Virus record (IMG/VR): IMGVR_UViG_3300022305_000561
Source: a virus
Lineage: Duplodnaviria; Caudoviricetes
Strand: one strand, 5' to 3'
DNA length: 64,000 bases
Shown: positions 3,447-28,964 of the stretch, piece after piece
How positions within the stretch are numbered: the stretch's first letter is position 1
Layout: each line of letters starts with the position of its first letter
The notes under the pieces: generated by a model
Told to the model about the DNA's origin: nothing
What the model saw: the letters and a program-made list of their open reading frames with translations, nothing else
Databases searched by the model: none
Made by a program: the position numbers and the translations under genes

Positions 3447-3456
3447 GATAAAATTT

Positions 3457-3526
3457 CTACAGTTTTCAATTATTATAAATAGTAATGAAACAAAAAATGC
3501 CAATCACGAGTTTACGATACCCTATA
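3457..3526 (+). repeat. Truncated, ORF-less copy of the endonuclease leader cassette
   Basis: TATAAATAGTAATGAAACAAAAAATGCCAATCACG is identical to 6067-6101; it breaks off at the uvsX stop codon. Confidence 0.8.
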
Positions 3527-3528
3527 AT

Positions 3529-4146
3529 CTATTCTACTTTATCAAGTTCTTCTTCAATATCTTCATCAACAACTTTATCTAGTTCGGCAGTTATTGATTC
3601 GTCAGTTAATAGTTGACCAGTCGCTAACGTATATCTTTCCCTAACCCACGATAAGAATGTTTTATCTGATAAGATAGGCAACCAGAAGTCTTTGGTATCT
3701 GTATCTTTGATACGATATTTCTTTTCTTGTATTTCGCCAGATAATACATCAACCTTAGAATACCATCCATTTGAGGGTTTTATGACATGACCAGATTCCA
3801 AAGCCATTTCGAGCAATCCAGACCATGTGCTAATACCACCTTCAAACTTCACAGTGATTGGAATTTTAGACTTTTCTCTAACGTGTCTAGACTTCTCAAC
3901 ATTAATGATGAAACTATATCCTGATACTTCTGTTCCTTCTTTTTCTTGTTGTCTGCCTATAATGTAAATATTATCGGCGCTTAGGTAGACCCCAGTTCCA
4001 CCACTCACGATAGGTTTACTGTAGAGCTCTTGGGTATTATGAGAAATGATACCATTACTTAAAACATAATCGTGGGTTGGTGTTTCTATATCATAAACAT
4101 ATTCTTTTCGTGAATTAAATTTAATAGACTTAATCATCATTTTCAT
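3529..4146 (-). CDS. uvsX: UvsX (RecA-like recombinase) C-fragment preceded by a 37-aa C-intein
   Basis: MKMMIKSIK...VYDIETPTHDYVLSNGIISHN|TQELYSKPIVSGGTGVYLSADNIYIIGRQQEK...EKSRHVREKSKIP. Confidence 0.93.
   Translation of the reverse strand: MKMMIKSIKFNSRKEYVYDIETPTHDYVLSNGIISHNTQELYSKPIVSGGTGVYLSADNIYIIGRQQEKEGTEVSGYSFIINVEKSRHVREKSKIPITVKFEGGISTWSGLLEMALESGHVIKPSNGWYSKVDVLSGEIQEKKYRIKDTDTKDFWLPILSDKTFLSWVRERYTLATGQLLTDESITAELDKVVDEDIEEELDKVE
4036..4146 (-). mobile_element. Split intein C-fragment (37 aa) of UvsX
   Basis: Blocks F/G (VYDIE...ISHN) and Thr+1. Confidence 0.9.
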
Positions 4147-4901
4147 TTTTTCTTACTCCTACAATTATCAAAATGCCAGCGACCGCTAGCAACAATCATC
4201 TTACAATGGGGGCATTCTCTTTTTTCATGTTTCCAAGTTAAACCAAATGTTGGATTATTTTCACCTTTCCTAGAACCTATCTTAGAAGTTCTTTCGGCAT
4301 AATCCATAGATTTTACCGAATTTATCCTACGAGCTTCTTGTTCTGTTGTAAAGTTATTTCTAACGGTTTTCATGGAAACTGATTTATGATACCAATCAGT
4401 TTCCTTTAAAATATCAAAACAATCATTCATCTCAGCAAAAAATTTTAAACTGTTTCTAATATTAGATAAAGTGAGACCAATCCCCTTTCTTATATCTGGA
4501 GAAGATATCTTCTCTTTTGTGTACATTTCCCAAATACGAGTAGTTTGTGCGATATAATCATCAAATCCATATTTTCTAGCCCATCTATCTTTAATGGATA
4601 TTCCAATATTTTTAGCAAAGGCTCTTCTTATCCAACCGTAACTCTTATTTGATTGCCTCCCAAACCTATTTGAACACATCATCGTACAAGCATAAATCAA
4701 TTTAGAAATATCTGGGTTGATTTTAACCAATAATAAATGTGCCAAATAGTGTTCTTCTGGAGTCAACCTAACTAAATTATCGAGGGTATCTGCTCCGCCC
4801 ATACAAGTTGGTAATATATGATGTACTTCAACATACCCATCTATATGTGATCGTAAAATACCCCTATTGATTAAACGGTTATAATGTTTTAAATAATTCA
4901 T
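4143..4901 (-). CDS. HNH homing endonuclease inserted between the uvsX halves
   Basis: YVEVHHILPTCMGGADTLDNLVRLTPEEHYLAHLLL; C-terminal CPHC...HFDNC zinc motif; late promoter at 4931-4938. Confidence 0.92.
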   Translation of the reverse strand: MNYLKHYNRLINRGILRSHIDGYVEVHHILPTCMGGADTLDNLVRLTPEEHYLAHLLLVKINPDISKLIYACTMMCSNRFGRQSNKSYGWIRRAFAKNIGISIKDRWARKYGFDDYIAQTTRIWEMYTKEKISSPDIRKGIGLTLSNIRNSLKFFAEMNDCFDILKETDWYHKSVSMKTVRNNFTTEQEARRINSVKSMDYAERTSKIGSRKGENNPTFGLTWKHEKRECPHCKMIVASGRWHFDNCRSKKK

Positions 4902-4950
4902 ATTCTTACCTATGTTATGTATATATGAACTATTTATATATTTTAAACTT

Positions 4951-5805
4951 TCAGATAATATCTAAATACATACCCTCATGTAAATCCTCCACTAACACCC
5001 ATTCACCATTCACCTTAAATTTATGTCCCGATGTAAAAGAAAGCGTTGACCCATCTTCCATTTCAATATCAGTAACAAATGCCTCATCATACTTAAATTT
5101 ATTTAAAACTGGCTCAAATCCATTGGTGGTTAATACATTACACCCAACCTCGATATCTTTTAATGATAATGGTCCAGTTTCTGTCGTCACCATCATATCT
5201 TTAGTACCGCACATATAGATATGGTTAACAGCTACCATAGGAATGTCAAACTTCACTAGGTATGGAGTTATCATCCTAAAGATAGACTTCATTTGCTTTG
5301 CTCTTGACATATCTGTAACAGATTTACCATCCTTTGCATCATCAATTTCTTTCTTACTTGACATATTACCCAAGGAATCTACTAAGAATATGATTTTATC
5401 GCCTTTCGTTATGTTCTCTAAATGATTAATAGCATCTAACTTGAATTCTTCCATATTCATAATTGGAGTATGTAGAATTCTCGACTTGTCCATATTCAAT
5501 GAATCAAAATATGATTCAGGTGTTCCAAACTCACAATCATAGAATACCATAATAGATTCTGGATACTTGTCCATATAGGCTTTTGCCAGGATCAAACAGA
5601 AGAAACTCTTAAAGTGTTTTGAGTTACCACAAAACAAAGTAAGCCCAGGAGTTAATCCACCATCTAATCTTCCCGAAAGAGCTACATTCAATGCTGGGAT
5701 TGGTGTTGGGATCATATCTTTTTTCGTAAAGAATTTAGAAACTGCCAATGTGGAAGTTTCTTTGATGGTACTATTTTTCTTCATTCTTGCTAATAACTCA
5801 CTCAT
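4951..5805 (-). CDS. uvsX: UvsX N-fragment followed by an 86-aa N-intein (4951-5211)
   Basis: LNVALSGRLDGGLTPGLTLFCGNSKHFKS, FYDCEFG, DMSRAKQMKS, VNHIYM|CGTKDMMV...FTSGHKF; start MSEL chosen from the GGTGA RBS. Confidence 0.93.
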   Translation of the reverse strand: MSELLARMKKNSTIKETSTLAVSKFFTKKDMIPTPIPALNVALSGRLDGGLTPGLTLFCGNSKHFKSFFCLILAKAYMDKYPESIMVFYDCEFGTPESYFDSLNMDKSRILHTPIMNMEEFKLDAINHLENITKGDKIIFLVDSLGNMSSKKEIDDAKDGKSVTDMSRAKQMKSIFRMITPYLVKFDIPMVAVNHIYMCGTKDMMVTTETGPLSLKDIEVGCNVLTTNGFEPVLNKFKYDEAFVTDIEMEDGSTLSFTSGHKFKVNGEWVLVEDLHEGMYLDII

Positions 5806-5837
5806 ATTATCACCTTTATTATTGTTATGATACAACT

Positions 5838-5869: not shown

Positions 5870-6046
5870 TTATTTTTCTTCCCATAAACCCATCGGTCCA
5901 AATCTATTCCTAAGTTCTTCTAGATTGGCTGGTTGTCTAGAAACATTGGCATCATTCCAATGGCTCTGTTGGTGCTGATTGAACTGGGTTTTGAGGATCC
6001 AATTATAACAGAAAGGGCATTGATATTCAAGTTTATACGGATTCAT
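5870..6046 (-). CDS. Small C2H2 zinc-finger protein (58 aa), not in the ORF track
   Basis: Hand translation MNPYKLEYQCPFCYNWILKTQFNQHQQSHW...LWEEK*; CX2CX11HX3H; paralog at 25185. Confidence 0.7.
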   Translation of the reverse strand: MNPYKLEYQCPFCYNWILKTQFNQHQQSHWNDANVSRQPANLEELRNRFGPMGLWEEK

Positions 6047-6050
6047 AATC

Positions 6051-6164
6051 TACAGTTTCCAATTCTTATAAATAGTAATGAAACAAAAAATGCCAATCAC
6101 GGGTTTCTGACACCCTATTGGCTCTAATCATTCTTTCAATAATCAAGGACTATTATGACCAGCA
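6051..6164 (+). promoter_or_regulatory. Endonuclease leader: late promoter + conserved hairpin + RBS
   Basis: TATAAATA at 6067-6074; stem GCCAAT(6092-97)/ATTGGC(6117-22); CTCTAATCATTC; AGGA; ATGACCAGCA. Confidence 0.8.
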
Positions 6165-7961: not shown

Positions 7962-8023
7962 AGTGAGTTTCCAATTCTTATAAATAGTAATAAACAAAAA
8001 AAATGCCAATCACGATGCGTCAA
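7962..8023 (+). repeat. Truncated endonuclease-leader scar within the gp43 split
   Basis: GTGAGTTTCCAATTCTTATAAATAGTAATAAACAAAAAAAATGCCAATCACG with no following ORF. Confidence 0.8.
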
Positions 8024-10602: not shown

Positions 10603-10707
10603 AGTGAGTTTTCAATTTGTATAAATAGATATAGGTGTTACTCACGGATGGCTGTCCTAGTAACTCTAATCATTCTACTATTAATTCAGGAACTAATATG
10701 ACCAGCA
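10603..10707 (+). promoter_or_regulatory. Endonuclease leader (late promoter + hairpin)
   Basis: TATAAATA at 10620-27; GTTACT(10637-42)/AGTAAC(10659-64); CTCTAATCATTC; ATGACCAGCA. Confidence 0.8.
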
Positions 10708-11408
10708 CAAGTATATATACACCCTTTTTACCAGACCAATATTGCGTTTATCATACCACTTATTCCGGAAAACTTCTACCTCAAAACTATATTGGCTCAT
10801 CATCAGTAGACAATGTTCTAAATAAAAATTATCACGGTTCAGTGGTATCAGAACGATACAAGTCAATATGGTTATCTGAATTAAAACTCCATCCCGAACT
10901 GTTTTCAACAGTAATAGTATCTTACCACGATACCAGATCAAATGCAACATATAAAGAACTTCAGGTACAAAGAACATTAAATGTTGTTAAAAGCGAGTTA
11001 TTCGTCAATAGATCATATGCCTCCGTATATGGGTTTACCGATACAACATACACACCAGAAGAAAAAGAGGTAATGAGTAAGAAACTATCTACTGGACATG
11101 CTAATAGAACTCCTGAAGAAAAAGCAAAAACGAGTAAGAAAATGTCAGATGCGCGTAAAGGAAAAAAGCAATCAGAAGAACATATATCTAAAAGATCTGC
11201 TGCTAATACAGGACTAAAAAGATGTCCTCGTTCTGATGAGTATAGAACTAAACAATCTGTTGCACATACAGGTAGGAAAAGAGGTCCTCAATCGACAGAA
11301 CATAGGAATAAACTATCTTCTATATTCTTCTTCTTAATATCAACTAAGAAAAGTTATACTAAAAGAGCATTAACTAGATATTTTCCCGAGTTCAAGCAAT
11401 TTTATTAA
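10698..11408 (+). CDS. GIY-YIG-like homing endonuclease with NUMOD3 repeats
   Basis: YCVYHTTY...NYIGSSS...YHGSV; repeats QSEEHISKRS, RSDEYRTKQS, QSTEHRNKLS. Confidence 0.8.
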   Translation: MTSTSIYTPFLPDQYCVYHTTYSGKLLPQNYIGSSSVDNVLNKNYHGSVVSERYKSIWLSELKLHPELFSTVIVSYHDTRSNATYKELQVQRTLNVVKSELFVNRSYASVYGFTDTTYTPEEKEVMSKKLSTGHANRTPEEKAKTSKKMSDARKGKKQSEEHISKRSAANTGLKRCPRSDEYRTKQSVAHTGRKRGPQSTEHRNKLSSIFFFLISTKKSYTKRALTRYFPEFKQFY

Positions 11409-18802: not shown

Positions 18803-18878
18803 TGGAGCGGACGACTGGGTACGATCCAGCAACATTCTGATTGGAAATCAGATACTCTACCAATTGAGTTACGTCCGC
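18803..18878 (-). tRNA. tRNA-Gly(TCC)
   Basis: GCGGACG/CGTCCGC acceptor, TCTGA-TTTCCAA-TCAGA anticodon arm, U73, encoded CCA, 76 nt. Confidence 0.92.
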
Positions 18879-22989: not shown

Positions 22990-23516
22990 TCAGATATCAC
23001 ATCTAAAGTTTGACAAGTCGGAACTATTACTTTTGGAACCTTTACCTTTCTAACAACATTTGGCAACTCAGCGTCTGAAAACTCAGCCAAGAACTCTCTG
23101 TATGAGTTGACAAACTCTGCATCATCATCTTGTTCTTGAAGTTCAAATACTATGTTACCTACAGATTGGATAATTTTATGTTTAAGTTGATATTGTATCT
23201 TCTCTTTTGCAATCCTACGAAGGTATGCAAAGTATATAATTTGAGTATAATAAGAGAATGGATTGGACGACTTCTCAGGATTGAACTTATCAAAATATCT
23301 GATGCAGTTTTCAATACCATCACAAATCATTTCATCTTTGAATGAGTATCCATTGAAGTTACCCTTGTTGGCAAGATTGTTTGCAATCTTTAGAACACAC
23401 TCACCAAGATAGTTGGTGATTTGAGGTTTCTCATCACCTTCTTTAAGTTTAGATAGAAGTTCTTTTCTTTCAAGTATTGCTGCAAAAAAATCCTTGTTTG
23501 ATACATACTCAGCCAT
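22986..23516 (-). CDS. 55: Late transcription sigma factor gp55
   Basis: YVSNKDF, DEMICDGIENC, NPFSYYTQIIYFAYLRRIAKEK. Confidence 0.95.
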   Translation of the reverse strand: MAEYVSNKDFFAAILERKELLSKLKEGDEKPQITNYLGECVLKIANNLANKGNFNGYSFKDEMICDGIENCIRYFDKFNPEKSSNPFSYYTQIIYFAYLRRIAKEKIQYQLKHKIIQSVGNIVFELQEQDDDAEFVNSYREFLAEFSDAELPNVVRKVKVPKVIVPTCQTLDVISE

Positions 23517-23546
23517 TTCAATCACCTATTAATTAAATATAATAAT

Positions 23547-23575
23547 ATTATATACTACATCATCTAAAAAGTAAA
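23547..23575 (-). promoter_or_regulatory. Promoter TTTACT-N17-TATAAT upstream of gene 55
   Basis: Consensus boxes with 17-nt spacer. Confidence 0.75.
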
Positions 23576-23579
23576 GTAT

Positions 23580-23890
23580 ATTGAATTTAGGAAGTTTATG
23601 TTAAAAGCATAAACTCTAAAACCTTCAAAATACCTTATTTATTTTCCATCTAAATCAATAACTTACAAATCATTTATTCGCTTAAATATCGTAATCTGTA
23701 TAAAGTTACGTCTTGTTTATACTTAAATGTGTTTAAAATGACTTCTTTTTATGTATTTAAGTTATAAATCAATAGATTAGAGAAATGTTCTCTTAGGATA
23801 TAAGGCAAAAAATATCAATTCTCAAAGTCTTGACTTTTGCCTGTTTTTATAGTATACTTTATCTGTGGTTGGGTTAAGTAGATTTATAGA
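23580..23890. other. AT-rich noncoding region with two IHF consensus sites and an antisense promoter; candidate origin
   Basis: WATCAA-N4-TTR at 23653-65 and 23767-79; plus-strand TTGACT-N17-TATACT at 23830-23858. Confidence 0.45.
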
Positions 23891-24215
23891 TTACTTAATA
23901 TCCACTTGATGTAACTTAAGATCAAATTGCTCTTCTGAGTAGGCCTTAACTCTCTCGGCAAAGTGATTCAAAGTATGATTCATAGATGACTTATAGGAAA
24001 GGTCATCTGCCACATCGTAAAGCACACAGGATGATTTGCCTTCCCTCAACCTAAGACCTCGTCCTATAGATTGGAAGTTTCGTATTTTACTCTTAGTTGG
24101 ACTAGCAAAGATAATATTCTCAATAGATGGAATATTAATACCAGTAGAGAAAGTTGCGTCAATAGGACGCAATAATAATTGCGCCCCTGACCTCCTGTAT
24201 TTTTTCTGGTAACAT
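23891..24215 (-). CDS. uvsW: UvsW helicase C-fragment, interrupted by TGA + frameshift (4 extra nt at 24158-24161)
   Basis: MLPEKIQEVRGAIIIASY* then ATFSTGINIPSIENIIFASPTKSKIRNFQSIGRGLR (SF2 motifs V/VI) in the next frame. Confidence 0.8.
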
Positions 24216-25087
24216 TAAGATAGCCTTTTAGATTTCGATTTATCCTTCACCCAATAAAATCCTATTGGGCACTCTTTTGTTTTTGTTTTATTTATACCAT
24301 CTGTCCAAATCCTTAAACCTACTCTAGAGGATTTTTGCCTATCCCTAAAATCCTGATCCTCCCACATCGTTTTTATTTTTTCTCCAGCATCTAATCGCTT
24401 ATCAATATTTGTATTGACTATTAACATCTTTTCATTAAAAGCTATTTTATATTCATCATCCCTTTCATCCCATACTTTTTGTTGAGAAATAGAGGATTTT
24501 ATTTTTTCTTCTGGTCTATTCTTAAACTCAGACTGATATTCTGAAAACGATATTCTACGATCATCAGTCCAAGAATCCTGGGATGATTGTTTATGCTTAG
24601 CCTTTGTTTCAGGATTTAACATGTGTATGTGTATAGATGTTGATATACCATTTTTCACTTGTTCTCTTGCTATGATAGCTCGCTTTGCTCTGAATCCATC
24701 GTATTTTTCGGTATCTTTTTTTAGAACTTCCCACGCTGATGTAGAACCCTTAGACATCATATCTCTATATTCTTCAGAAGTCAAATCACTTCTCATAAAC
24801 CTAAGAGGGTTTATGAATTTATTTATAGGATATGCCTGAGCCAACAGTTTATGTGCCTGAACGTGGGTTGAATATTCTAATTTTACTAGATTCCAAGAAC
24901 AATCTATAAACTGAGGGAATATGCTCTTAGGTAATATGTGATGTATTTCGGCATAAACGCCCTCATTGCATACTTTTGTTATTAAACTAAGATATTCTTC
25001 TAGATATGATAAAGATTCTGGAGCACCTAATTCTTCATCTAATTTTGATTGAAAAAAAATATTATTATATATACTTATGCTGGTCAT
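24215..25087 (-). CDS. HNH homing endonuclease inserted in uvsW
   Basis: AEIHHILPKSIFPQF..CSWNLVKL...HVQAHKLL; C-terminal IWTDG..KT; family leader at 25078-25180. Confidence 0.88.
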   Translation of the reverse strand: MTSISIYNNIFFQSKLDEELGAPESLSYLEEYLSLITKVCNEGVYAEIHHILPKSIFPQFIDCSWNLVKLEYSTHVQAHKLLAQAYPINKFINPLRFMRSDLTSEEYRDMMSKGSTSAWEVLKKDTEKYDGFRAKRAIIAREQVKNGISTSIHIHMLNPETKAKHKQSSQDSWTDDRRISFSEYQSEFKNRPEEKIKSSISQQKVWDERDDEYKIAFNEKMLIVNTNIDKRLDAGEKIKTMWEDQDFRDRQKSSRVGLRIWTDGINKTKTKECPIGFYWVKDKSKSKRLS

Positions 25088-25180
25088 AATGGTTTCCATT
25101 GTTGAATGATTAGAGTTAGTGGGTTCCGAGGCCGCGACTAACACCTTTTACTATACTATTTATAAGAATTGGAAACTCTA
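25078..25180 (-). promoter_or_regulatory. Endonuclease leader (late promoter + hairpin)
   Basis: TATAAATA at 25157-64; GTTAGT/ACTAAC stem 25115-25142; CTCTAATCATTC; ATGACCAGCA. Confidence 0.8.
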
Positions 25181-25184
25181 GATT

Positions 25185-25354
25185 ATGAATCCAGACAAAC
25201 TTGAATATCAATGCCCCTATTGCCACGAGTGGATATTGAAAACTCAATATAGCAACCACGAAAACTTGCATATCAATGAATGGTTAATGCACCAACAACA
25301 CTAGATGAACTAGAACGAAGATTAAGACCTTTGGGATTGTTTGACGAAAGATAA
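25185..25354 (+). pseudogene. Paralog of the 5870-6046 C2H2 zinc-finger gene, frameshifted after the finger
   Basis: MNPDKLEYQCPYCHEWILKTQYSNHENLH...* (stop 25302-04); homologous tail PTTLDELERRLRPLGLFDER* in another frame, ending at 25354. Confidence 0.7.
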
Positions 25355-26725
25355 TTTAATTTTGTTTGCTATCCAAATATCACAAACATCGTCATTTAAG
25401 GTTATATCTTTAGCAAACTTAACCTCGCCAGATGTCATTTTTATTTTTTCATTATTAGGCACTTTTATATCTATTCCTTTGAATGTAAATATTTTTCCAT
25501 CAAACTCATTCTCTGTTTCCTTTCTTATGTATTCCCTATCCTCAGTCTTGACTTCACCAGACACATAAAATATTTTTCTACCATCTTCAGCTCTATCAAC
25601 AATCATCTTATGTAGAATCTTACCGTGTTTAGCAACAAACTGAAACAGGACTAAAGTGTTACCATCTTGTTTCAAGGCAAGGTTAGTTATAAACTTATTC
25701 CTTCCTTCGTGGGATACAAGAAAGTCCATTTCATCTTGGTACTTCATACCTTTATATAACTTCCTAACTTCTTCTGGATATTTCAATAACAAACATTTAA
25801 TATCAAGTTGAACGACTCTATTTGAATCCATCAACTGTTTGGTAGTAATAACCCTATGAAGAGGTCCCATTATTCCTTCAAGTTGAAGTTGATTCACTTG
25901 TGAGTTATCTATTGTACCAGTAGTTCCAATTCTATACTTGACGTCAGTCATATTCTCAAACATAGAAGTGATTGAGGCACCCTTTGCTAAATGTGCTTCA
26001 TCACATATTACCGCATCAAATTGGTTGTAAAAGTCTTTACCAATACCATCTAATGCCCCACCTGCTTTGTTACGCCATGAACTCTGCCAAGTAGTAATAA
26101 GAACATTCAACGAGAAGTCTTTTGAAAGACCTGAGTACAATTTCTGACAGTTATCTTCTGTTGACCAATTATTACCAGTTGAATAATCATCAAAGTCCGC
26201 ATACAACTGCTCAACTAACGAAGTCGTTGGCACAATGATAAGAACTTTCATATTCTTCGCCAAGAACCATCTAATCAACGTATAGATAATCAAACTCTTA
26301 CCAGAAGCAGTAGGCGATAAGAGTACAGTCTTGCAAGTATTCAAAGATTTATGAATAGCGTCTATTTGATAATCCCTTATCTCAATAGGCGTTCCTTTTG
26401 AACAAGGATTAATTATCTTTGCAAATCCTTCTACTTGTGCAGAAGTAATACCCATATCATAGGATATATCGGTATCTATTTCTAATGTGTGATTATTCCT
26501 TTCTGCAAACTCTTTTACATAATCAATAAGACCAGAATACAACTTTTTAGTTTGAAGATTATATAAACGACTGAACCCGTCCCAAAGTCGAGCCTTAAAT
26601 TTCGGGGAGAACTTAGCTCCTGGAACTGGGAACTTAAAGAACTCTGATAATTCTTGTTCTGTAGATGGATCAGAGAATAATCTTATATGAACTTCATTCA
26701 TTTTTTCAACTTTGATTAATGTCAC
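25322..26725 (-). CDS. uvsW: UvsW helicase N-fragment with a 60-aa non-helicase tail
   Basis: RDYQ, SPTASGKS, IVPTTSLVEQ, DEAH, GTTGT, LVLFQF...HG; lacks motifs V/VI. Confidence 0.92.
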   Translation of the reverse strand: MTLIKVEKMNEVHIRLFSDPSTEQELSEFFKFPVPGAKFSPKFKARLWDGFSRLYNLQTKKLYSGLIDYVKEFAERNNHTLEIDTDISYDMGITSAQVEGFAKIINPCSKGTPIEIRDYQIDAIHKSLNTCKTVLLSPTASGKSLIIYTLIRWFLAKNMKVLIIVPTTSLVEQLYADFDDYSTGNNWSTEDNCQKLYSGLSKDFSLNVLITTWQSSWRNKAGGALDGIGKDFYNQFDAVICDEAHLAKGASITSMFENMTDVKYRIGTTGTIDNSQVNQLQLEGIMGPLHRVITTKQLMDSNRVVQLDIKCLLLKYPEEVRKLYKGMKYQDEMDFLVSHEGRNKFITNLALKQDGNTLVLFQFVAKHGKILHKMIVDRAEDGRKIFYVSGEVKTEDREYIRKETENEFDGKIFTFKGIDIKVPNNEKIKMTSGEVKFAKDITLNDDVCDIWIANKIKLSFVKQSQRS

Positions 26726-27714: not shown

Positions 27715-28866
27715 TTAGATATTAGTATTTATAAGGGATTTGCTGGCTCTTGGTTTCATACCCTTTTTCCAAGATGGATTTGGCTCGTCTCCCTTTGGAA
27801 CATAGAAATTTGTAATACCATCATTATAAACAACAGCGTCTTTCCTTTGCTTTGTAGAGGCAGCAGTTTGTGCTGACCTATCTCTAGGGAGTTGTCCTTT
27901 TATCCACTCACCACCAGGATCCTGTTTGAACTTCTTCATAATAGATCCATTGTTATAAAAACTAGAACCAGTATTAACCTCAGCAGCCAATTTAGATCTT
28001 TTTACATTTTGGTTCTGTTTGTTTTCTGTATAAGGAACAATCAATCCAAGTTCTTGTATGACTGGGTCTGAAGTAGAAATGTATCCGTATTTGGTAACTC
28101 CATCAGGATAGTAGAAAGTGAACTTACCTTTCATTTTGGTAGATTGTTTTCCATTACCTTGTAATCTGATATATTCATAATCTTCAGGGGACTTGGGATT
28201 ATGCCAACCTTGATTAAGCAATTCTGTATATTCGTCTGATTGGATTTGTATTGTTTTAACTTGATCAAGTAAATATAGTTTAATAGTTCTACAATGATCT
28301 TTAGATCTAGCCATAAGTTCTTTAGATTCATCAGTCATAGTTAAACCAGCATTATTTCCAACTAAGTTCAACTCTTGTATAGTTGTGTCATCTTTATGTA
28401 AATAATATTTGGCTCCATTAGAATCTTTATAAGTAGCCATATTTGAATGTTCTAATGATCTTTGGATAGATGCATCTTCTCTAAGTTTTGATAAAGTTAG
28501 TCTAATATATTTTGTAGGTATTTTTCTATATGAAAGTTTATCGTTTGTAGATTCATTGAAATTAAATAACATACACTCTAATGCCCTTGATTGAGAACCG
28601 CCAAAAGTTTTCCATAGAATAACGTGAGCTATAATATGTTGATGTGCCGTTAGGTTAATAATATTCCAAGAAAAAAGTATTTTGTTAGTGTATTCTGGAA
28701 ATAAGTCTTTTGCTTTAGGATAGATATGATGTCCTTCAGTATAAACCCAATCTATATTATTTGAATTTTTTAATCTACACCCATCAATGAACTTTAGATA
28801 TCTATTGAGATAATGTGCATTGTGGGGTTTACTTGAAAGGATTGTATAAATATTATTGCTGGACAT
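27715..28866 (-). CDS. HNH-like homing endonuclease downstream of gene 23
   Basis: YTEGHHIYPKAKDLFPEY...NLTAHQHIIAH; YNNG/YNDG C-terminal repeats. Confidence 0.85.
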   Translation of the reverse strand: MSSNNIYTILSSKPHNAHYLNRYLKFIDGCRLKNSNNIDWVYTEGHHIYPKAKDLFPEYTNKILFSWNIINLTAHQHIIAHVILWKTFGGSQSRALECMLFNFNESTNDKLSYRKIPTKYIRLTLSKLREDASIQRSLEHSNMATYKDSNGAKYYLHKDDTTIQELNLVGNNAGLTMTDESKELMARSKDHCRTIKLYLLDQVKTIQIQSDEYTELLNQGWHNPKSPEDYEYIRLQGNGKQSTKMKGKFTFYYPDGVTKYGYISTSDPVIQELGLIVPYTENKQNQNVKRSKLAAEVNTGSSFYNNGSIMKKFKQDPGGEWIKGQLPRDRSAQTAASTKQRKDAVVYNDGITNFYVPKGDEPNPSWKKGMKPRASKSLINTNI

Positions 28867-28964
28867 AGTAGTTCCTTGTAATTACGATTAGAATGTTTAG
28901 AGTTAGTAGGTCTGACCACCGTGACTAACACCTATTACTATTTATACAAATCAAAAACTCACTC
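28857..28964 (-). promoter_or_regulatory. Endonuclease leader (late promoter + hairpin)
   Basis: TATAAATA at 28939-46; GTTAGT/ACTAAC stem 28902-28929; CTCTAAACATTC; ATGTCCAGCA. Confidence 0.8.

Follow-up and report, generated by a model that had tools for sequence, protein, structure and literature searches.

A split phage uvsW gene with a conserved tail and head predicted to fold as a splicing-dead half of a Hint domain, and with a short coding gap

Introduction

The uvsW locus described here raises the question of how a helicase whose gene has been broken by an endonuclease gene could be made whole again. The locus lies in a stretch of viral DNA of 64,000 nucleotides (nt) from IMG/VR (record IMGVR_UViG_3300022305_000561; Duplodnaviria, Caudoviricetes). 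This stretch, referred to throughout as the window, belongs to a T4-like marine myovirus, its closest DNA matches being Pelagibacter phage Mosig and Synechococcus phages at ~70% identity. On the minus strand of the window, uvsW was found in pieces over positions 23891-26725, with an HNH homing-endonuclease gene breaking it immediately ahead of helicase motif V. The N-terminal fragment ends in an additional tail, and the C-terminal part is preceded by an additional head and by a short coding gap that contains a stop codon.

In the textbook view, selfish nuclease genes make their insertion harmless by means of introns and inteins. Insert-derived tails that serve in reassembly are a third way, with experimental backing to date for a single enzyme, the NrdA protein of Aeromonas phage Aeh1, and proposed for the T4 topoisomerase. 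An earlier note on the window, made from the sequence alone, had claimed that the tail and the start of the C-fragment are what is left of an intein, decayed to a docking module that no longer splices. The reading reached here, to which we assign a probability of roughly 0.55, is that an HNH cassette split uvsW, that the tail and head form a splicing-dead clasp equivalent to half of a Hint domain, and that the gap is bypassed by a ribosomal hop.

The cassette and its borders in uvsW

Uninterrupted uvsW genes were found in more than 30 relatives in IMG/VR, and the 60-residue (aa) tail that the earlier note had described on the N-fragment has a counterpart in none of them. These unsplit alleles include L003, with identities to the window of 91% across the full match and 94% in the core; L004 is likewise unsplit. 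The claim that an HNH gene separates helicase motifs was confirmed by alignment with unsplit UvsW. The break was placed before motif V, between the helix that follows the second strand of the second RecA domain (RecA2) and the strand that precedes motif V.

When compared with L003 and L004, the left junction falls just after the E-N-E of the helix preceding the third RecA2 strand. The first 24 nt of the tail are identical to the replaced native codons at 15 of the 24 positions, with no similarity beyond. Alternatively, the first strand of the tail may have arisen as a copy of the native RecA2 strand that has since diverged. To the right, the seven codons before the gap are a copy carried by the cassette (7 of 24 nt unlike L003), while the sequence after the gap shows ~90% identity to L003. 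The head of the window has 11 residues and leads directly into the Ala of the native strand. No other lesion was found in the N-fragment, which is 94% identical to an intact relative.

In a tree of UvsW proteins, the split loci were scattered among unsplit ones, and the window, L003 and L004 were nested together with 100% support. To account for this tree, the split must have been gained or lost at least three times. The patchy pattern fits an old cassette moving between phages.

A conserved tail tied to the split gene

When 1.84 billion representatives were searched exhaustively by phmmer with the 60-aa tail, one clear relative was obtained, the UvsW N-fragment of L037 (E = 6e-7), in which the tail is 43% and the helicase body 40% identical to the window. 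A word-indexed protein search with the tail region gave no match. The L037 contig has no nuclease gene at this locus; it has a 33-nt spacer, a homologous head open reading frame (ORF), a stop codon and a 7-nt gap. The loci L038, L040, L041 and L042 were found by scans with a 20-24-nt element common to the window and L037, and 13 further loci came from a degenerate scan for the tail motif A-K-D-I-T..D-D..D.W, which is independent of the hairpin described below. Members from cultured phages, namely Dickeya phage PP35/LIMEstone1 and Vibrio phage K471, were obtained by tblastn. In total, 15 distinct tails were collected across split-uvsW loci.

In the loci found, the tail at this position is always paired with a split uvsW and never with an unsplit gene; none of the unsplit UvsW sequences compared has it as an ordinary in-frame insertion at this site. 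The tail is retained after loss of the nuclease gene in L037, L038 and K471. Tails are 42-66% identical between family members despite saturated synonymous sites, and purifying selection on the tail was evident between L040 and L041, with a nonsynonymous divergence (dN) of 0.30 and a synonymous divergence (dS) of 1.7. The chance of an open extension of 57 codons in DNA of 32% GC was estimated from composition to be ~0.01. The nucleases are homologous across the split-uvsW family: the genes that occupy the corresponding position in L040 (E = 2e-37) and in Dickeya phage PP35 (E = 3e-12) encode homologues of the window endonuclease, and a search of IMG/VR with the window HNH protein gave no close relative. 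These data support the conclusion that both the tail and the head are conserved as protein under selection and go together with the split.

Further elements were observed in or near members of this family. L045 is Dickeya phage PP35 (MG266157.1, 88335-90929) and has the same tail, HNH gene and head as the window cassette. At positions 7178-8200 of L059, an ORF for a GIY-YIG-type endonuclease takes the place of the HNH gene, and the uvsW C part appears to be broken across frames. A second, tail-related module lies in frame in the first RecA domain (RecA1) of L037 (1154-1315; P0003 residues ~222-275) and matches the window tail by BLASTP with an E value of 0.002. The window N-fragment has a 14-aa insertion at the same RecA1 site (residues ~214-227). 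The module at this site in L037 and the window may be a relic of another element.

The coding gap and its hairpin

In eight loci, the window and seven others, a Tyr codon (TAT or TAC) is followed by the stop codon TGA or TAG at the start of homologous gaps of 4, 6 or 7 nt. The gaps read TGAC in the window and L061, TGAGGAC in L062/L065, TGAGTGC in L042, TAGTGC in L041, TAGTGA (with two in-frame stops) in L038 and L040, and TAGTTAA in L037. Skipping the gap restores the native protein sequence exactly in each gap-bearing locus. The C part is an intact ORF of 87-89 codons in every complete locus, and the proportions of nonsynonymous and synonymous differences between two gap-bearing loci (pN 0.084 versus pS 0.74) reveal strong purifying selection downstream of the gap. 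In several relatives the C part is without a usable start of its own, and in L037 it has no start codon.

The earlier note had likened the start of the C-fragment of the window to the first strand of a C-intein and made no mention of a break after it. The ATG-led head does exist, but its ORF (24215-24159) is closed by TGA after 18 codons, and the rest of uvsW lies in another frame after the TGAC.

A stable RNA hairpin, of two sequence types, was predicted in 8/8 gap-bearing loci (-15 to -18.7 kcal/mol; z scores of -3.7 to -4.9) and in 0/6 gap-free loci, five split and one unsplit (z scores of 0 to +0.9). The hairpin ends 0-4 nt before the stop codon and lies 5' of the take-off Tyr codon. In the window it is preceded by AGGAGG at 24191-24196. 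At 24154-24172 on the minus strand of the window, the TGAC insertion also completes a 7-bp inverted repeat that is specific to the window and is followed by a T-rich run; this repeat was scored as terminator-like and overlaps the 3' arm of the conserved hairpin.

Since the gap places one or two stops after the Tyr codon, production of the full head-bearing C-half needs a short hop or a frameshift. Several candidates for a general route were tried and rejected. A plain +1 frameshift would suffice in the window, L042 and L061 but not in L037 and L062/L065, and the in-frame stops of L038, L040 and L041 are impassable to it. Read-through of the stop codon fails where the frame changes, and initiation at an internal TTG (24172) would be in frame in the window and L042 alone. 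Hopping between matched codons was likewise rejected, as there is no matching landing codon. The reading that fits all eight gap-bearing loci would be a short ribosomal hop assisted by the hairpin. If T4 mobA/gene 60 is a guide, the gap may serve to block the nuclease's own target site.

Structure predicted for the tail and head

Split inteins find each other through the second half of the N-terminal intein piece (IntN) and the first strand of the C-terminal piece (IntC). An AlphaFold2 model of the tail alone, made from a six-row alignment, consisted of four strands and a helix, with a predicted local distance difference test score (pLDDT) of 82.6. Foldseek gave no significant match for this model, inteins making up about half of the top 50. 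For a joined model, the tail, spacer and head were folded as a single chain from L037, where the N-fragment, spacer and head share one frame. In this model (pLDDT 73.6) the head forms a strand, and the top ~40 Foldseek matches were all inteins (best E = 0.06, probability 1.0); the viral structures matched were intein-bearing proteins. With the tail-alone and joined models, two independent structure searches gave almost only inteins and Hint domains; a clean break followed rank 27.

The matches of the joined model cover intein residues ~45-145 (40-111 of gp41-1 and 49-121 of Npu DnaE). This region corresponds to the second half of IntN and the first part of IntC, and it ends exactly where inteins are split and the endonuclease sits. 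The Z score was nearly doubled by adding the 13-residue head of L037 with the spacer and the copied strand. According to these models, the tail and head together would adopt the fold of the middle, non-catalytic part of a Hint domain; a Hint-like fold, which the earlier note had supposed, is thus what AlphaFold2 and two structure searches predict for the tail plus head. The pendant of the T4 topoisomerase (PDB 8yo3) gave only a poor Foldseek match to the tail-alone model (E = 3.2; root-mean-square deviation 7.3), by which no link was established, and it was not among the top matches of the tail-plus-head model.

Several parts of an intein are missing from the tail and head. Absent are the first ~45 residues of IntN with Cys1, the TxxH of block B, and blocks F and G with the His-Asn and the +1 nucleophile. 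The tail starts F-D-G-K, and no conserved Cys or Ser is found at the junction in the 15 tails. The window tail contains no His, and none is conserved in the family in either possible register of block B. As Cys1, TxxH, His-Asn and the +1 nucleophile are all missing, protein splicing was excluded, in agreement with the earlier observation that the tail lacks a Cys/Ser junction and a TxxH and the head a His-Asn.

Other features of the locus and of the window

The features of the locus are collected in Table 1. The N-fragment and the endonuclease ORF are separated by a spacer of 222 nt, which contains the inverted repeat and the TATAAATA box. The M-K/L-P start of the head is conserved in all family members.

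Table 1. Features of the split uvsW locus in the window.
Feature	Position	Strand	Basis or remark
uvsW N-fragment	25322-26725	-	467 aa; Pfam UvsW_N, ResIII, DEAD
Native part of the N-fragment (UvsW_N, RecA1, first half of RecA2)	25505-26725	-	Pfam; core 94% identical to unsplit L003
Tail: C-terminal extension borne by the cassette, 60 aa (25325-25504) plus stop	25322-25504	-	Absent from unsplit relatives; predicted four strands and helix
Inverted repeat of 17 nt between tail stop and endonuclease promoter	25197-25278	-	blastn self-match; arms 25262-25278 and 25197-25213
T4-type late-promoter box TATAAATA within the repeated module	25157-25164	-	Read from sequence
HNH (Mob-like) homing-endonuclease gene	24215-25099	-	phrog_655, E = 2e-22; phrog_12434 HNH, E = 1e-17
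Head: N-terminal extension, 11 codons; ATG overlaps endonuclease stop (TAATG)	24183-24215	-	Predicted strand completing the Hint-like model
RNA hairpin, 10 bp, loop UAUU, ending at the Tyr codon	24164-24187	-	RNAfold, -15.1 kcal/mol, z = -4.1
HomR: copy of the native strand before motif V borne by the cassette, 7 codons ending in Tyr TAT	24162-24182	-	7/24 nt differ from L003
Coding gap TGAC, 4 nt (stop codon plus one base)	24158-24161	-	Insertion relative to L003
uvsW C part, 88 codons, motifs V and VI to the natural C terminus	23891-24157	-	Helicase_C match

The window contains further endonuclease elements. The uvsX gene (3529-5835, minus strand) is a true fractured gene: its N-half ends in an 86-aa IntN (Cys1, T-S-G-H), an HNH gene follows at 4143-4901 (phrog_655, E = 2e-52), and an IntC (S-H-N, then T) is fused to the C-half. 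This split intein lies 20 kb from uvsW, and its HNH gene belongs to the same PHROG family, phrog_655. A third HNH gene of phrog_655 was found at 27715-28866 on the minus strand. A module of 25-110 nt that bears a promoter and includes TATAAATA recurs on both strands upstream of several endonuclease-like ORFs, with copies at 1186-1204, 3456-3484, 6015-6077, 7965-7989, 10606-10719 and 28891-28941. The copy at 6015-6077 is 94% identical to 25154-25216.

Discussion

The course of events that we propose is the following. A Mob-type HNH cassette has inserted in uvsW, replacing about nine native codons and splitting RecA2 between its second and third strands. With it came a repair kit consisting of the 60-aa tail, the 11-aa head and a copy of the displaced strand. 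The C-half would start with the head, being made after the hop in the window phage and directly in PP35 and K471. The tail and head would zip into a Hint half-domain, as the halves of a split intein do before splicing. This non-covalent clasp would hold the half-domains so that RecA2 re-forms and motifs V and VI are positioned against RecA1, with no covalent joining.

From the models, the most likely role of the tail and head is that of a non-splicing docking clasp delivered by a mobile cassette. A role in assembly was deduced because the tails are conserved, are retained after loss of the nuclease and have precedents in Aeh1 NrdA and T4 gp39/gp60, which is indirect evidence. An intein origin is plausible because the same genome contains, 20 kb away, a genuine split intein that goes with a nuclease of this family. 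The suggestion of a decayed-intein docking module stands in part: the tail and head are conserved and selected, and a Hint-like fold is predicted in the region of the second half of IntN and the start of IntC, but a sequence signal for intein descent is absent.

A number of results weigh against this reading. Searches at E <= 10 of Pfam with the tail and six family members gave no family, a PDB profile search with the tail at the same threshold gave no intein, and the ESM atlas gave no usable Hint match for the tail. Profiles of 6 and 15 tails were compared by hhalign with a UvsX-type IntN profile, which was derived from the genuine split intein in the window uvsX and from one relative, and gave a probability of 0.5% (local P = 0.09). 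Because sequence methods show no Hint relationship, the by-eye alignment of the tail with the window UvsX N-intein, on which the earlier note had relied, was deemed not to be evidence. The AlphaFold2 folds were obtained from shallow alignments of 6 and 11 rows; the joined model includes the natural in-frame 12-codon spacer of L037 with two TAA codons read as Gly, and four tail residues per row are misaligned in its alignment. In the window, attachment of the head to the C part depends on bypass of the stop-containing 4-nt gap. Matched take-off and landing codons were not found, as the triplets before the resume codon (GAC, TGC, TGA and TAA) are near-cognate at best to the take-off codons TAT and TAC. 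No suppressor tRNA was found in the window by ARAGORN, which detected only a tRNA-Gly(UCC) at 18803-18878 on the minus strand. Finally, the tails of Aeh1 NrdA are unnecessary for binding between the halves, although they are needed for higher-order assembly (PMC3045599).

With these points in mind, it might be argued that the tail and head are assembly peptides that arrived with the cassette from random or other coding DNA and still aid the split helicase, their Hint likeness being that of a generic small beta arrangement or a product of AlphaFold bias. This explanation deserves serious consideration but is judged unlikely, since Hint folds top both independent aligners with a clean break after rank 27, the matched region stops exactly at the intein split site where the endonuclease sits, and the window itself contains a genuine split intein whose endonuclease belongs to the same family. 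It is less probable still that the tail has a role other than docking, either as a DNA- or partner-binding addition to UvsW or in the service of the mobile element, for example in controlling expression of the endonuclease. Such roles do not sit well with a tail that is found at this position only with split uvsW in the loci collected, that persists once the endonuclease has been lost, and whose match to Hint folds is nearly doubled by adding the head.

Two further explanations were considered. The interruption of the C part by a stop codon and a change of frame, together with the terminator-like hairpin and T-run that the insertion creates, would be expected of a decaying pseudogene in which the 4-nt insertion abolishes function by shifting the frame and leaves the tail and head as relics. 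This explanation is judged very improbable: in eight loci from divergent phages a gap has been kept after the same codon, with an ORF of 87-89 codons intact and under strong purifying selection behind it, and the hairpin is present in all eight gap loci and absent from the gap-free ones; moreover, the N-fragment is 94% identical to an intact relative and has no other lesion. A group I intron with an endonuclease ORF, removed by splicing of the mRNA, has in its favor that the homologous interruption was listed as the putative intron I-LimI in the LIMEstone1 paper (PMC3296691). RNA splicing, which the earlier note had named as an alternative, is scarcely credible here: no intron signal was obtained from Rfam, with no group I match at E <= 1 and one chance snoRNA match as the only result of a scan of 23400-26000, and the supposed 5' part of the intron is an in-frame ORF under protein-level selection. 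In addition, endonuclease-free relatives leave -20 to 33 nt between the halves, so there is no room for a ribozyme. The interruption in LIMEstone1 is more likely a split by a free-standing endonuclease gene than an intron.

The preferred reading, a splicing-dead clasp combined with a short hop, is in part already known in principle. Endonuclease-split genes with insert-derived tails, the idea of a degenerate split intein and the strategy of C-terminal and N-terminal extensions (CTE and NTE) have all been described. The earlier suggestion that such a clasp is a different way to tolerate endonuclease invasion is therefore not new, having been made for Aeh1 NrdA (PMC3045599) and for the T4 MobA element (bioRxiv 10.1101/2022.08.31.505936). 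New are the uvsW family as a broad natural example, the predicted structural support for the half-intein idea, and the very short gaps with a linked hairpin.

The family sample spans marine T4-like phages, Ackermannviridae and Vibrio phages, and it supplies a structural model that can be tested, that of a splicing-dead half intein as predicted by AlphaFold2. The clasp, if it is real, would be a small natural module for non-covalent heterodimerisation. The gap of 4-7 nt with its hairpin offers a compact system for the study of ribosomal hopping. The findings also correct an annotation, as the homologous interruption in LIMEstone-like phages had been read as an intron.

Comparison with known systems

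In fractured genes, a free-standing endonuclease gene lies between the two pieces of a split intein (Dassa et al. 2009, PMC2677866). These genes and the window uvsX share with uvsW the order of an N-half, an IntN-like piece, an endonuclease gene, an IntC-like piece and a C-half, with the break at the canonical intein split site. Unlike fractured split inteins, uvsW is without the Cys1 region, TxxH and blocks F and G.

The nrdA-a / mobE / nrdA-b arrangement of Aeromonas phage Aeh1 has been described as "genes in pieces" (Friedrich 2007; Crona et al. 2011, PMC3045599). As in the uvsW locus, an HNH Mob-type endonuclease splits an essential enzyme gene. The Aeh1 NrdA tails are essential for activity, and it was suggested by Crona et al. 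that they might be remnants of a degenerate split intein (PMC3045599). The uvsW case differs in its target, in the predicted Hint half-fold, in comprising at least 15 distinct loci and in the coding gap of some members.

Relatives of the window cassette are found in Dickeya phages LIMEstone1/PP35 and Vibrio phage K471, whose uvsW is split at the same site and has homologues of the tail and head; the endonuclease is homologous as well in the Dickeya phages. Unlike the window, these phages have no coding gap and encode the C-half in an ordinary ORF. GenBank entries with the split uvsW of LIMEstone-like phages, annotated as an intron, date back to 2012, and the LIMEstone1 authors read the interruption in the same way (PMC3296691).

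For T4, the MobA element was described by Manning and Atkins, who proposed CTE/NTE tails as a general strategy (bioRxiv 10.1101/2022.08.31.505936), and the gp39/gp60 extensions form a pendant of ~70 aa that is thought to act as an assembly chaperone (PMC11461880). The MobA element (gene 39 / mobA / gene 60) has the same layout as uvsW: an in-frame CTE on the first ORF, an HNH gene, an NTE composed of a unique part and HomR, and then a gap beginning with a stop codon. In both, the tails and gap outlive the nuclease, and near-identical genomes without the insert exist. The Mob-cassette features found at the window uvsW are an HNH gene between the halves, a selected CTE, an NTE with a copy of the target and close relatives free of the insert. 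Those of gene 60-type bypass found in the uvsW family are a stop right after the take-off codon, a conserved downstream ORF and an RNA structure linked to the gap. The uvsW gap differs from that of T4 gene 60 in being 4-7 nt rather than 20-50 nt (the T4 bypass spans 50 nt), in having its hairpin 5' of the take-off codon and in its unmatched triplets, and the target is a helicase rather than a topoisomerase.

It is tentatively suggested, as a generalization that is doubtful at present, that the tails of Mob-type cassettes are all half-Hint clasps derived from split inteins, perhaps including those of T4 gp39/gp60 and Aeh1 NrdA. An intein, a fractured split intein and a non-splicing clasp would then form a series, to which the uvsW lineage would add a hairpin-driven hop of 4-7 nt without a matched landing codon. 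Should this be correct, the uvsW cassettes would be a second natural family of bypass cassettes.

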